DNA of 64,000 nucleotides from a virus. The notes beneath the pieces are model-generated. The model was not told the DNA's origin and made no database searches. It saw only the letters and a program-made list of their open reading frames with translations. Location: IMG/VR virus record IMGVR_UViG_3300023181_000029, positions 1 through 64,000 of that record, one strand, 5' to 3'. Made by a program: the position numbers and the translations under genes. Of this stretch, positions 1 to 56,885 are shown in pieces; the stretch's first letter is position 1, and the number at the start of each line of letters is the position of its first letter.

Positions 1-93
1 GCTGAAACCGAGCAAGGTTATGATTATTGGGAAGCTATTGCGTCCACTATGCTTCAATCTAACACCCCAACCGAATTAACCCCTACAGTATGA
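1..93 (+). CDS. Partial (3' end) hypothetical protein, identical to the C-terminus of 46568..46807
   Basis: Frame 1 reads AETEQGYDYWEAIASTMLQSNTPTELTPTV*. Confidence 0.75.
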   Translation, partial: AETEQGYDYWEAIASTMLQSNTPTELTPTV

Positions 94-97
94 GCAC
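1..97. repeat. Exact inverted repeat of 46564..46660
   Basis: Base-by-base comparison: 1..97 is the reverse complement of 46564..46660; identity ends after ATGAGCAC. Confidence 0.95.
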
Positions 98-144
98 CGA
101 GATAAGCCGATAACAAAATAACGATTGACTAAACCCACATAGAT

Positions 145-41749: not shown

Positions 41750-43441
41750 ATGAAACACATTAAAACTAGCCTTATATTATACCTAGTGTTAGGTATATTC
41801 GTTGCTCATTCCCAAAACGTACCACCGGGCACACAATCAGCTTGGTCATATGACATATCAGGAAACACTACTACTGGCGTAGGGACATACATGGGCAACA
41901 GAACTTATAATGTCAACGGCATGGTTGGCTGGAAAAACCTTGTACAAAGCGCACCGACTACACCGACAGACAGTAATGGATTATTTTTGTCAAAAGACAC
42001 TAGCTACCTTTGGAGTAATAATATATGGCGCATACTGGGGCCAAGTGTGAGCATCGGTTGCTTAGCGGGTACCGGAACGCGGGTAGTTACGACGAATGCT
42101 ACAGGTGGGCTGGGGTTTAATAAATTAGAGAATATGGCTTGGGGGTTAACAGGCAACGACGGTACAGACCCTACCATTAATTTTATAGGAACCACTGACG
42201 CAGTGGATTTTGTCTTTAAAGCAGACAATACGGATTTCGGTCGGGTTACAAGCATGGGCAGCTGGCAGTTTGGGCAAGACAATGATGTGTCAGGCATTTC
42301 TACTTCTATGGCTATAGGAAATGGAGATACCGTATTGGGTAGGGCTTCTGTAGCAACCGGAACGGGGCTATATCTGAATGACATTTACACTTACGCCACG
42401 GGTGAATACAATGAACGCAATGTGCCTAATTTACTTTGGGCGCTAGGTAATGGAACGACCTTTGACGACGCGTCGCGTAAAAACGCCATTACAGTACTAA
42501 AAAATGGAAACGTAGGCATAGGCACATCAACGCCAAATTATAAATTAGATATACAAGGAGATTTAGGCGTTTACGCTAGTTTGGCGGGGGATGAAACAAG
42601 TGTAGTTGTTGTTCCTGGGAGAAGTGAAACACAAATTACCACCTCGCTAGGTGGGTTAAGTTTATTTCAACAAACAGAAGGATTGCAATTTACTGGTTCT
42701 GGGGATGTCATTTTGCAATACTCTGTCGGTAATGGTAACGTAGGCATAGGGATGTCTAGTCCGCTAGCCAAACTTGATGTAACGGGCACATTCAGACAAC
42801 AGTTTGATAACGGCACCACTACAGCAGTAATTACTAATGATGGTAATAATATAAGGCTTACTACTTCTAACAACACATCGGGTGAGCGTACAATATTAAA
42901 CGTGTATTCTGACGGGATTGGACTTGATTATGACCAAGATAACACCGGAACGCTTACGCAATCTATATTAGCTAATTCTAGTGGATTGTTGTTAAATAGC
43001 GGTTCCAATGATAAAAATGTAGGTATAGGTACGACCACACCGATAACAAAACTAGATGTAGCAGGAATTGTTGGAAACGAGGGTTTGCGATTTAAAAGCA
43101 CTAACTATGGTACGGATAGCGTAGAATTAGAACCACAAGTATATGGATGCGGTTGTGATTGGGACACTTATAAGTCATTAGCTTTTACTGACTATAATAA
43201 TGACGAAGTAGTATTATCAGTGCCGTATCTAAGTAACGGGGGTGGTGCGTATCTAGGATTAAGCGATAACGTAGGTATTGGAACAACAACCCCTGCCAGT
43301 AAATTAACCGTAACCGATGGGGACGTGTATATAACTGACATTGGTAGCGGCGTAATAACTAAAGACGATGATGGCTTTTGCTGGCGTTGTCGCGCGTCTA
43401 CCGTAGGAGCATTTGAATGCGTAAGTATAACCTGTCCATAA
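41750..43441 (+). CDS. Fibre-like protein with Sec signal peptide and NVGIG repeats
   Basis: [21 protein letters not shown]|Q; four NVGIGxxxP..KL repeats; Cys-containing C-terminus. Confidence 0.75.
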
Positions 43442-46367: not shown

Positions 46368-46571
46368 TTATTTATCTTTGTGCCAGTCATATATTTCGCC
46401 ATCTGCGCTTCGGTAGGCGAAGTCGCCAGTGAAGTCATCCAAAAAGTAGTAGCTCAAAGCAACAAAGAAATCTTTAATTGCTGGCGTCATTTCGGAATCT
46501 GGAATGCTTAAAGCCTTATTCTGCAATACACGGTACCTTAATGCTTGCTCTGTTTTTATTTCTGTGCTCAT
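46368..46571 (-). CDS. Hypothetical protein
   Basis: ATGA overlap. Confidence 0.6.
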   Translation of the reverse strand: MSTEIKTEQALRYRVLQNKALSIPDSEMTPAIKDFFVALSYYFLDDFTGDFAYRSADGEIYDWHKDK

Positions 46572-46660
46572 ACTGTAGGGGTTAATTCGGTTGGGGTGTT
46601 AGATTGAAGCATAGTGGACGCAATAGCTTCCCAATAATCATAACCTTGCTCGGTTTCAGC
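46564..46660. repeat. Inverted repeat partner of 1..97
   Basis: Exact reverse complement. Confidence 0.95.
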
Positions 46661-46807
46661 CCATCCAAATGCAGATTTTAACGCCAAATAAAACGTACTA
46701 TACGACATTAGGTTACTATGCTTATCATCGCTATCTAGCCCGTAATAATATAATGCCTGCTCCCTTATAGGCTCTGGCAATCTATCTAACCATTGTGCTA
46801 TTGTCAT
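46568..46807 (-). CDS. Hypothetical protein, paralogue of 59887..60099
   Basis: LPEPxRxQAL..AFxW..(Y/F)DYW shared. Confidence 0.75.
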   Translation of the reverse strand: MTIAQWLDRLPEPIREQALYYYGLDSDDKHSNLMSYSTFYLALKSAFGWAETEQGYDYWEAIASTMLQSNTPTELTPTV

Positions 46808-47028
46808 TTCTTGGTGGTTTCAAGTTCAATTATAAAATCAGGCTTGCTTAGCTGTAGGGTGTAGCCGTAGTGGTTGAATAGCTTTACCATGTCGGGGAAC
46901 TTAGGTACCCATAAGCCTTTCTCATACTTGCGGTAGGCTACCGTGGATACCCCCATGCCTGATGCTGCTTCGCTTTGTTTTTGCTTGTGTAGCTTACGAT
47001 AGTGGGTTAATAGTTCGGGTGTGGTCAT
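46804..47028 (-). CDS. XRE-family HTH regulator
   Basis: QSEAASGMGVSTVAYRKYEKG..P. Confidence 0.85.
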   Translation of the reverse strand: MTTPELLTHYRKLHKQKQSEAASGMGVSTVAYRKYEKGLWVPKFPDMVKLFNHYGYTLQLSKPDFIIELETTKK

Positions 47029-49187: not shown

Positions 49188-49631
49188 TTACTTCTTTACG
49201 TCAATGCGAGTTTTAGCCTTATGACATGACTTGCATAGTCCTTGAAAATTCCACAAACCCATTCCGCCACCGCCTTTATGAACCGGCAATATGTGGTCAA
49301 CATCATCAAAGCCTTCTACGCCGCAATGTTTACAGAAATCCCCTTGAGTAATATACAACATACGCCGTATAGACGAACTATCAGAGGAGCATAACCGCCA
49401 TAACCACTCTAATGTAGAAGCACATTCGCTAGAAGACCAGCGCGTTTGACGACCTGTAATCGGTGTTCCGCAGCCACAATCGCATAATCCATCGTTCTTA
49501 GGCGGCAATAATCTAGTAAAGAAATTAGATGTCTTTTGTCTGCGGCTGTATGGATTAATAATACCATCAGCAACCAACTTATTAAATCGGGCTAAATCAT
49601 AATTGGCTACTATTTGTGGTATTGTATCCAT
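49188..49631 (-). CDS. HNH endonuclease
   Basis: CxxC..DVDHILPVHKGGG..NFQGLCKSCHKAKT; TAGCTTTG box 49640..49647. Confidence 0.85.
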   Translation of the reverse strand: MDTIPQIVANYDLARFNKLVADGIINPYSRRQKTSNFFTRLLPPKNDGLCDCGCGTPITGRQTRWSSSECASTLEWLWRLCSSDSSSIRRMLYITQGDFCKHCGVEGFDDVDHILPVHKGGGGMGLWNFQGLCKSCHKAKTRIDVKK

Positions 49632-49665
49632 GTGTAGAACAAAGCTAAATAGAATTTCCTGTAAT

Positions 49666-49673
49666 GGGCAGGG
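49666..49673 (+). other. KOPS-like octamer GGGCAGGG pointing toward dif
   Basis: Matches GGGNAGGG. Confidence 0.55.
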
Positions 49674-49740
49674 AGTATTAATACTATAAATGGTAAAAGG
49701 TAATTGCTATAGGGTACCTGTGATATAATGAGAGGTGACC

Positions 49741-49908
49741 TGCGGAAATGTTTCGGGAATACTAATATTGACTATCTCTGCTTGATAACAATCTTGCTTG
49801 ACAGAGTATATGTGTACTTCGTGCATGTATACCGGGCATTTAATCCGCGAGGGCAAGTCGCTCAATCTCGACCGGGTACATCAACCTCACGAAATCCTAA
49901 CTTGCCCA
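49741..49908 (+). ncRNA. Candidate structured ncRNA
   Basis: Nested stems with G-U pairs favouring the + strand. Confidence 0.4.
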
Positions 49909-50273
49909 CCAATTTCAAAACCAAAGCACAAAAGCCAGTCCATACTATAGAACTAAGCTAAAACATGGTTATGACGTAGCGATACATCAATTAATCATGT
50001 GTGCTAATGGGAATGACTTACTGTGTGGTATGTGCTAGGCTGTGGTGCTAATGCGAATTATCTCATTAGGTTGCAATACGTCTATGGTTAAGTTATCATA
50101 CACGCCAGTTAAACGACTAGGTGAATATAACGACTGCTCATACATTGTATGTATTTCAATTAAGTATCTTGTTTGGTTGCTCATAGGGCTAAGGTAATAA
50201 TATTGCAGTTAACTATATTAGCGATGATAGTTTACAATGCGCCTAATTACATGTTATTTCTGGATTATCGGTG

Positions 50274-50286
50274 GGGTAGGGGAGGG
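50274..50286 (+). other. Two overlapping KOPS-like octamers
   Basis: GGGTAGGG 50274..50281 and GGGGAGGG 50279..50286. Confidence 0.6.
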
Positions 50287-50311
50287 GCTGAGGCACACTG
50301 ACATAATGGCT

Positions 50312-50339
50312 ATTTAACATAAACGTGGTTATCGTGGGA
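50312..50339 (-). other. dif: dif-like XerC/XerD recombination site
   Basis: Minus strand TCCCACGATAA-CCACGT-TTATGTTAAAT; XerD arm identical to the canonical dif arm; 11-6-11 layout; intergenic. Confidence 0.8.
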
Positions 50340-50353
50340 TTTTGGTAAACGCT

Positions 50354-50381
50354 GGAAACTTTAAATGTTCCCGCAGTTTCC
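50354..50381. promoter_or_regulatory. 28-bp imperfect palindrome, copy 1
   Basis: GGAAACTTTAA-ATGTTC-CCGCAGTTTCC. Confidence 0.6.
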
Positions 50382-50433
50382 TATTGCAATCCTCATACCT
50401 ATGTATTATCTTTGTTGACATAAGTCGCTGCAA

Positions 50434-50658
50434 ATGATTAGTAAAAGCCCACTTTTGGCAAAAGACATACTTAAGGAAGCACGTAAAAGGCGTAAATTGA
50501 CGCTATCGCAGGCCGCAATAGTTACTAAAATTAAGGCATCGACACTATCAAGGTATGAAAACGGCAACAGAAAGATATCAGCAGATGACTTTATAAGTAT
50601 TTTGGGTTATTATAGTGCTCATATTGCCATTATTGAGGCAGATTTTCTATTAACTTGA
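50434..50658 (+). CDS. XRE-family HTH regulator
   Basis: LKEARKRRKLTLSQAA..STLSRYENGNR; promoter TATCTTTG 50407..50414. Confidence 0.88.
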   Translation: MISKSPLLAKDILKEARKRRKLTLSQAAIVTKIKASTLSRYENGNRKISADDFISILGYYSAHIAIIEADFLLT

Positions 50659-50748
50659 CATTACCTGCTGGAATATGCACACAAAAGGCATGTTTTGGCA
50701 ATTATTATGAGTGAAAACAGGTGCAAGAAACAGTCAAAATCCCTTAAC

Positions 50749-50776
50749 GGAAACTTTAAACACACTGAAAGTTTCC
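50749..50776. promoter_or_regulatory. 28-bp imperfect palindrome, copy 2
   Basis: GGAAACTTTAA-ACACAC-TGAAAGTTTCC. Confidence 0.6.
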
Positions 50777-50818
50777 ATAGTTCCTATATTTTAGCGGTAA
50801 ATAGTTGATATTCACAGC

Positions 50819-51304
50819 GTGAGCAATGCGAAGTCATACGCCTATAAGACTAGCGGATATAATACTCCTGAGCGTGATACACAGAAGTCTGTCCCTGCTA
50901 TCACTGCTTATCTTCATGAGCGTAGGCGCATCTATACACTTGTCCTGCATGAATTATGCCCTCCCCGCCCTTCGGGGTCTACTGATAGACGTAAACGTAT
51001 CTTAGATGATATTGTACACTCTGACTTAGATACACTTCTTTACTGTGTTGGTCTGGATATGCGTGAGATAGTCATTATTATAGGCTGTGATTTACTCGAT
51101 AATACTGGCCTGCCTTTAGTTGAAGGCCTTTCAAAGCGTGAGTTTAACCGCATGGATAAATTAGGTCTATTAGGTATCCGCAAGCGTGGGCGTGTTGAGG
51201 TCGAAGGCAAATACTATGATACAGCACGAATATCTGATAAAGGCTTAAAGCTATGCGCACGTATTGGTGAGCTTGTGCGCAAGGTTGCGCAAGATTACCG
51301 ATAA
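50819..51304 (+). CDS. Hypothetical protein, possible winged helix
   Basis: MDKLGLL..ARISDKG wing-like motif. Confidence 0.5.
   Translation: MSNAKSYAYKTSGYNTPERDTQKSVPAITAYLHERRRIYTLVLHELCPPRPSGSTDRRKRILDDIVHSDLDTLLYCVGLDMREIVIIIGCDLLDNTGLPLVEGLSKREFNRMDKLGLLGIRKRGRVEVEGKYYDTARISDKGLKLCARIGELVRKVAQDYR
50959..50966 (-). other. KOPS-like octamer pointing toward dif from the right
   Basis: CCCTCCCC on plus = GGGGAGGG on minus. Confidence 0.45.
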
Positions 51305-56498: not shown

Positions 56499-56885
56499 AT
56501 GAAATACGCAATAATTAGTGAATTATATGAAGAAATTGCACACTTGAAAAGCTTATGCAGTACGGGGCCCTACCCAATGGAGGCGCACGACTTTGACAGT
56601 ATTGAGACGGTATATAAGATGCTTTTAAGCTCACACGAGCCCGATGAAGTGTACGAGGTAAAGCGCATACACAACGCTACCACAATAGAGCCATCACGTA
56701 CTATGATTGCGGCAATGGCTATGCAGGGTATGATAGCTTCATTTGAGCGTAACCTACAGTTAGTGATTTCAAACTCTAAAAGCTCAGGTTGGAAAGTAAT
56801 ATATCCGCCTGAAACAGTTGCTGAGCATTCAGCTAAATACGCTGATGCCCTTTTATTGGAGCTTGCTAAACCTGTGGCGCAATGA
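56499..56885 (+). CDS. Phage protein (AAMAMQG..ADALL type)
   Basis: C-terminal motif common in phage early genes. Confidence 0.65.
   Translation: MKYAIISELYEEIAHLKSLCSTGPYPMEAHDFDSIETVYKMLLSSHEPDEVYEVKRIHNATTIEPSRTMIAAMAMQGMIASFERNLQLVISNSKSSGWKVIYPPETVAEHSAKYADALLLELAKPVAQ

Follow-up and report, generated by a model that had tools for sequence, protein, structure and literature searches.

Described Xer systems and the phage locus

In Escherichia coli, the synapses formed by XerCD and dif are inactive until the gamma domain of FtsK contacts XerD; XerD exchanges the first strands and XerC then resolves the junction, and three gamma domains load FtsK on the FtsK-orienting polar sequences (KOPS), directing its motion to dif (PMC5052618). 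Here we analyzed a phage locus at which candidate counterparts of dif and KOPS lie close together. The window, that is, the whole stretch of DNA analyzed, is the first 64 kb of IMGVR_UViG_3300023181_000029, a single 78,594-bp virus contig with a GC content of 40.8%. Within it, positions 50270-50339 appear, on balance, to form a compact two-part module, composed of a dif-type XerC/XerD site and a tandem FtsK-orienting motif.

The chromosomal dif/XerCD/FtsK-KOPS system of E. coli and of Vibrio cholerae (dif1 and dif2) shares with this locus the 11-6-11 layout, an identical XerD arm and a polarity of the octamer GGGNAGGG that is permissive toward the site, and the preference of the octamers for the XerD side fits the activation of XerD by the FtsK gamma domain (PMC5052618). 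Unlike the chromosomal system, the locus belongs to a tailed phage, possesses a single tandem guide 24 bp away instead of a replicon polarity on the kilobase scale, and has a non-canonical centre and XerC arm. Integrative mobile elements that exploit Xer (IMEXs), such as CTXphi, VGJphi, TLCphi, the Bacteroidota microviruses (BMV) BMV1-7 and the PhiCjT23-like phages, also lack a recombinase of their own and carry a dif-like site for host XerCD; BMV and PhiCjT23 share the host phylum of the phage described here (PMC3091885, PMC9719478). The IMEXs are, however, small single-stranded DNA (ssDNA) or filamentous phages that integrate at dif, without FtsK according to 10.64898/2026.06.12.731946, whereas the phage described here is a ~79-kb double-stranded DNA (dsDNA) tailed phage with a putative FtsK guide at XerD, a centre unlike host dif and no integrated copy found.

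In the case of the plasmid sites cer (ColE1) and psi (pSC101), a Xer core site with a "private" centre is likewise present once per extrachromosomal replicon. These sites depend on ~180 bp of accessory sequence and on PepA with ArgR or ArcA, and are independent of FtsK. In contrast, a KOPS-like tract lies on the XerD side here, which argues for FtsK dependence rather than for a reaction of the cer/psi type, and we know of no PepA or ArgR system in this phage setting. Like the Cre-loxP system of P1, the locus offers a single phage recombination site through which redundant DNA might be cyclised or dimers resolved; P1, however, encodes its own recombinase, and the sequence of loxP is unrelated. 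In the literature searched, the Xer-exploiting phages were filamentous phages, microviruses and double jelly-roll phages only, and no tailed phage with a module of KOPS and dif was found.

The site lies at 50312-50339, outside every open reading frame (ORF) of at least 40 aa, and reads TCCCACGATAA CCACGT TTATGTTAAAT on the minus strand. Its predicted XerD-binding arm (50312..50322, minus strand; TTATGTTAAAT, which is ATTTAACATAA on the plus strand) matches TTATGTHAANT at 11 of 11 positions and is the sole exact copy in the genome. It equals the arm of E. coli dif and that of the predicted dif sites of Cytophaga, Dyadobacter and Pedobacter (Kono et al. 2011, PMC3025954, supplement). The six-bp centre (50323..50328, minus strand; CCACGT, or ACGTGG on the plus strand) is atypical, and the XerC-type arm (50329..50339, minus strand; TCCCACGATAA, or TTATCGTGGGA on the plus strand) is canonical in ATAA alone. 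The two arms bring together the inner palindrome ATAA...TTAT in an 11-6-11 layout, and no other site in the genome has all 14 of the 14 core positions. Calculated analytically from a first-order Markov model of the phage sequence, the chance expectation per genome is 0.22 for the exact XerD arm, 0.0018 when ATAA at N6 is added, and 0.00011 when the flanking AG is added as well. The original prediction, made from the letters of the window, had described an intergenic 11-6-11 site at these positions with a canonical XerD arm, an ATAA-type XerC arm and a non-canonical centre, and we found each of these parts exactly so. As far as its sequence can tell, the site is a genuine mimic of host dif.

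The XerC arm and the centre are off-consensus at A5, G7, C12 and T17; they lack the usual C5, the T or C at position 7, and a TRTAYA-type centre ending in A. The atypical bases of the centre are C12, C13, G16 and T17. For comparison, we used the 117 non-redundant sites among the matches listed from a scan of IMG/VR described below. Position 17 is A in 110 of these 117 viral dif-like sites and T here, and the centre CCACGT occurs in none of the others. The 13 free positions of the XerC arm and centre score -13.2 bits, which is below all 117 listed comparison sites and below 95% of random sequence; this copy is thus the least canonical among the compared sites in its XerC arm and centre. Its XerD half, the flanking AG, ATAA and the G tract are intact. 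The centre shares 0-1 matches with the predicted Bacteroidota centres TTTATA, TTTACA and TTAATA, and the exact arm sequence (22 arm bases) was absent from IMG/VR and from 185,579 species genomes.

On the plus strand, the G tract GGTGGGGTAGGGGAGGGG (50270..50287) contains two overlapping KOPS-like GGGNAGGG octamers that point at the XerD arm, and it is one of two strong G/C tracts in the genome. The octamers at 50274 and 50279, GGGTAGGG and GGGGAGGG, merge into the 14-mer GGGTAGGGGAGGGG at 50274-50287, which is expected 1.3e-4 times per genome. This 14-mer is oriented toward the XerD arm and lies 24 bp outside it, separated by a variable spacer (50288..50311) that ends in CT (AG on the minus strand). 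By analogy with E. coli, a double KOPS-like motif in permissive orientation beside the XerD arm is the minimal geometry that FtsK-activated recombination would need.

Six GGGNAGGG octamers exist in the whole genome, at 42337, 49666, 50274, 50279, 50959 (minus strand) and 56568 (minus strand), and all six are oriented at the site. The original prediction had listed the first five, all of which exist, and had missed the one at 56568. It had also pictured a chromosome terminus, with octamers converging on the site from both sides over kilobases, and this picture did not survive. The total of six does not exceed chance: the expectation is 3.6-4.0 octamers, and a count of six is reached in 13 of 100 shuffles. 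Nor do the 7-mers of the GGNAGGG family have a polarity on the circular map (12 permissive versus 10 non-permissive), and octamers more than 300 bp from the 117 listed viral sites are randomly oriented. What stands of the XerD-side octamers is the adjoining pair at 50274 and 50279, which is conserved and, as a 14-mer, lies beyond chance. Because the density is at expectation and polarity is lacking genome-wide, the distal octamers at 42337, 49666, 50959 and 56568 are chance occurrences. Among them, GGGCAGGG (49666..49673, plus strand) lies 638 bp from the site. The octamer GGGGAGGG at 50959..50966 (minus strand) lies inside the ORF 50819-51304, where it corresponds to Pro-Pro-Arg-Pro codons in the segment CPPRPSG, and CPPRPSG is kept as protein in P0001, the homologue of this ORF.

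Conservation and coupling of the two parts

Twenty IMG/VR loci were obtained with an alignment of the four closest sequences of the large terminase subunit (TerL), and the contig analyzed here is designated G000. The four nearest long relatives, G001-G004 (TerL 31-33% identical), each match ATAA-N6-TTATGTNAANT exactly, and the pattern common to them is ATAA-N6-TTATGTTAA[AG]T. Their XerD arm is identical in G002-G004 and differs by one base in G001, AG adjoins the arm in all four, and the centres are TAAACC, TTTGCA, TTTACA and TTTGTA, respectively. Three of the four sites are situated between divergently transcribed gene blocks, and the site of G004 is 236 bp from its contig end. The site is also present in G021 and G026-G030, and both G001 and G026 carry it together with an integrase of their own. 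As an internal control, the dif-like pattern is absent from G005 and 15 more distant TerL relatives (~400 kb of DNA). In G000, G002 and G004, G/C tracts that are scarce in the rest of the genome occur no more than ~130 bp away from the site.

The relatives G002 (L033:16845-16990), G003 (L038:7150-7295) and G004 (L040:255-400) have a ~150-bp element in common on the XerC side of the site. It consists of GGGGG, ~20 nt, AATCGnTTTTTTT and a G or C tract, in mixed orientation and with no significant fold. G002 also encodes a 580-aa Cpn60/GroEL-type chaperonin (L033:14050-15792, minus strand) ~1.2 kb from its dif-like site.

Beyond these relatives, the scan of IMG/VR for ATAA-N6-TTATGTTAAATAG returned at least 120 contigs, compared with 57 for a reversed control pattern. 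At the 117 listed sites, the free positions are C5 in 81, T7 in 73 and T12 in 74, besides the A17 given above; such positions are strongly dif-like, and nearly all of the 117 listed sites are therefore genuine. In the 948 kb around them we counted 93 GGGNAGGG octamers, 51 of which lie within 100 bp of a site. Of the latter, 45 point toward the site (37 of them lying on the XerD side, the other 8 on the XerC side) and six point away, whereas beyond 300 bp the numbers are 22 toward and 15 away, which is random. The 57 control loci (563 kb) contain eight octamers, none within 400 bp of the control pattern. Grouped by their flanks, the listed sites that have a guide motif form at least 10 clusters.

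A second scan of IMG/VR, for GGGTAGGGGAGGGG-N8-38-ATTTAACATAA, required nothing beyond the XerD arm and returned 32 contigs. All 32 continue as N6-TTAT, and the centre ends in A in 30 of them; the spacer in these other modules is 8-37 bp long and its sequence is not conserved. Five large contigs among the 32 (47-74 kb) were tested and all encode a TerL 26-30% identical to that of this phage. When four of these five and L134 were tested for a tyrosine recombinase, it was absent in four of the five contigs. In L134 (TerL 30% identical), the 22-mer GGTGGGGTAGGGGAGGGGCTGA is base for base as here and the spacer differs; with 22 identical tract bases against a TerL identity of 30%, the DNA blocks are far more conserved than the proteins. 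The centres of the large phages are diverse, with 34 different ones in 45 sites, and several are G/C-rich (GACGTA, CACGCA, CGTGTA).

These observations demonstrate that the dif arm and the adjoining G-rich octamers form a conserved and coupled unit, with the octamers located on the XerD side and directed at the site. The conservation of dif and KOPS-like motifs in related phages, on which the original prediction could be judged, is thus borne out by the relatives and by the 32 contigs with the 14-mer. The recurrence of this two-part module in many related phages makes it very probable that it genuinely serves to borrow the host recombination machinery.

The phage genome and the genes around the site

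The contig belongs to a ~79-kb tailed dsDNA phage of Bacteroidota. It encodes TerL, a portal, tail fibres, an M15 endolysin and a primase/helicase. The TerL is 25% identical to those of the Flavobacterium "elemo" and Cellulophaga podophages, and -7 boxes of the TAnnTTTG type, characteristic of Bacteroidota, lie upstream of both genes flanking the site. The hosts of the TerL relatives and these boxes support a Bacteroidota host, as had been guessed from the letters. No similarity at the DNA level was found against 50,697 phage records, and single-protein searches returned no close relatives in IMG/VR or in JGI metagenomes; of 5.8 billion proteins, the TerL homologue that comes closest shares 35% identity. 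The phage was present in one public sequencing run only, a leaf litter metagenome from which it probably derives. The absence of an integrase from the window, also part of the original prediction, extends to the entire contig, as no tyrosine or serine recombinase (PF00589, PF00239) was found in its 78.6 kb, and the phage encodes no ParA, ParB or FtsK.

Both contig ends correspond to an inverted copy of an internal 287-bp segment, 46556-46842: window positions 1-105 are the reverse complement of 46556-46660 (98% identical) and contig positions 78518-78594 are that of 46766-46842 (100% identical). The map therefore closes as a ~78.7-kb circle with a pair of 287-bp inverted repeats, and this pair could flip two arcs of 46.5 kb and 31.7 kb.

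The first leftward gene encodes an HNH endonuclease (49188..49631, minus strand; Pfam HNH, E 1.6e-7) and has a -7 box, TAGCTTTG, at 49640-49647 (minus strand). The first rightward early gene encodes an XRE-family helix-turn-helix regulator (50434..50658, plus strand; Pfam HTH_3, E 5.9e-9), whose -7 box, TATCTTTG, is located at 50407-50414 (plus strand), 20 bp before the start codon. The ~770 bp between the HNH and XRE sides house the dif-like site and the G tract. On the XerC side of the site lies a 28-bp palindrome, GGAAACT-N14-AGTTTCC (50354..50381), and a second one, GGAAACTTT-N10-AAAGTTTCC, is found at 50749-50776; the two palindromes lie on either side of the XRE gene and probably serve as its operators. 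A direct repeat with 240-bp spacing (50415-50461 and 50655-50701) suggests a duplicated promoter region. The repeat AAACRTGGTTAT, with copies at 49961 and 50321, was judged a chance pair. Farther to the right, the ORF 50819-51304 (161 aa) has no family match. Its sole homologue among the 5.8 billion proteins, P0001, is 94% identical and lies on a 963-bp ENA contig; a close sister phage therefore exists. We also checked RNA explanations for the locus: there is no tRNA and no Rfam match, and no significant RNA fold around the site here or in three relatives, all z scores being between -1.2 and +1.9.

Proposed recombination between phage copies and its alternatives

By analogy with E. coli, we favour, with moderate confidence, FtsK-activated XerCD recombination between phage copies by means of host proteins. 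As neither a recombinase nor ParA, ParB or FtsK is encoded by the phage, any reaction relies on the host. Protein binding, FtsK dependence and biological use are what we infer in the following steps. The 28-mer would be bound by host XerD and, more weakly, by XerC. Gamma domains of host FtsK would load on GGGTAGGGGAGGGG, and the motor would travel the short distance to XerD, switching on an XerD-first exchange between two copies of the site. The partner would most likely be a second copy of the phage site, since there is one site per genome, recombinase and partition genes are lacking, and the centre CCACGT matches no predicted Bacteroidota dif centre. The outcome would be the resolution or unlinking of phage multimers or sister circles in cells that are still dividing, in a carrier or episomal state.

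Several points weigh against such recombination between phage copies. FtsK acts at the closing septum, and septum-bound FtsK fits a purely lytic cycle poorly. We found no evidence of an episomal state in the single metagenome, represented by contigs only, in which one contig runs through the site and no joints are seen. The poor score of the XerC arm and centre suggests that binding or cleavage by XerC may be poor as well. In G002-G004, the G/C tracts are on the XerC side and in mixed orientation. Finally, the literature searched yielded no data on which motif the FtsK of Bacteroidota reads, and GGGNAGGG is called KOPS-like by analogy with E. coli.

An alternative is that host XerCD inserts the circular phage genome at the chromosomal dif and so provides lysogeny without an integrase. 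A precedent exists among ssDNA phages of Bacteroidota that have no integrase and occur integrated between dif motifs (PMC3091885, PMC9719478). The site is adjoined by an XRE regulator with operators, and the site of G003 equals the predicted Cytophaga dif over 22 bases. In addition, 11 of 80 viral contigs (loci L048-L127) end within 250 bp of a dif-like site compared with 3.7 expected (P 8e-4), and so do six of the 39 contigs of at least 15 kb, compared with 0.6 expected. In five pairs of loci (L087/L136, L079/L136, L071 and L082 each with L120, and L128/L151), one of the two flanks of the site is similar and the opposite flank unrelated, as expected if recombination falls exactly at the site; these are mostly 5-7-kb elements. 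The contigs that end near a site include the TerL relatives G004 and L112; a branch in the assembly, the edge of a provirus or a terminus of the genome could lie behind such ends. However, strand exchange needs homology in the centre, and CCACGT is unlike the predicted Bacteroidota centres; together with the XerC arm, this non-canonical centre counts against an insertion into a canonical dif. None of the 185,579 species genomes contains the 22 arm bases, nor was a TerL relative found in them by a search of limited sensitivity with two peptide seeds only. Known IMEXs integrate without FtsK, and an FtsK guide at XerD should instead drive excision. Moreover, the presence of the site alongside an own integrase in G001 and G026 speaks against it. 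We therefore regard integration as unlikely and favour recombination between phage copies over it, because the centre is unlike host dif, the IMEXs avoid FtsK, two relatives carry the site along with an integrase of their own, and no prophage or chromosomal match was found.

It is improbable that the module is a docking place without recombination, which would recruit XerD, FtsK or both for tethering at the septum, for titrating dimer resolution or for controlling the early promoters, or that the G tract acts as a G-quadruplex. The position of the module between two divergent early promoters and beside two operators would suit such a role, the conserved core of this copy is the XerD arm and the tract rather than the XerC half, and tandem GGGTAGGG runs are classic quadruplex formers. 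Against this, the 11-6-11 layout and ATAA are kept in 32 of the 32 modules from the unconstrained scan, and their centres nearly all end in A, which points to recombination and not to binding alone; no significant secondary structure was detected either.

Equally, a decaying relic, that is, an ancestral module of dif and guide that has lost its XerC-side function and no longer recombines, is a rather doubtful explanation. It would account for the lowest score among the listed sites in the XerC arm and centre, with rare bases at positions 3, 4, 13, 16 and 17. Neutral decay, however, should also have hit the XerD arm (11/11), AG, ATAA and the 14-mer (14/14), all of which are intact, and the G/C-rich private centres occur in other large phages too. 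A chance origin, in which a dif-like match in an AT-rich intergenic region happens to adjoin an unrelated G-rich tract, is very hard to credit: an exact 11-mer indeed has an expectation of 0.22 per genome, and the octamers in total are no more numerous than chance allows, but for the arm, ATAA and AG together with the 14-mer at a distance of up to 100 bp the joint expectation is far below 1e-6, and the same composite recurs in relatives and 32 other contigs, with an orientation bias of the octamers at the listed sites.

Beyond recombination between copies of this phage, we tentatively propose, as a serious possibility, that a large group of tailed dsDNA phages of Bacteroidota, along with small ssDNA phages of these hosts, carry a portable cassette, an "FtsK loading pad plus dif", and, unlike all IMEXs described, which avoid FtsK, use the FtsK-dependent branch of the host Xer pathway, the private CCACGT restricting the site of this phage to phage-by-phage recombination. 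If so, Bacteroidota FtsK would read KOPS of the GGGTAGGG type, and the private centre would keep the site of this phage insulated from the host chromosome. The window contains an unusually divergent member of the family of dif and guide modules. Unlike the Xer-borrowing phages known so far, those described here are 50-80 kb in size, tailed and mostly integrase-less, and their dif copy is joined to a putative FtsK guide that points at XerD. The type of XerD arm could be of use in predicting the hosts of uncultured phages. The design suggests a septum-linked, FtsK-activated pathway, and these phages, although apparently lytic, would in that case exist for part of the time as circular DNA within host cells that divide, as in a carrier state.

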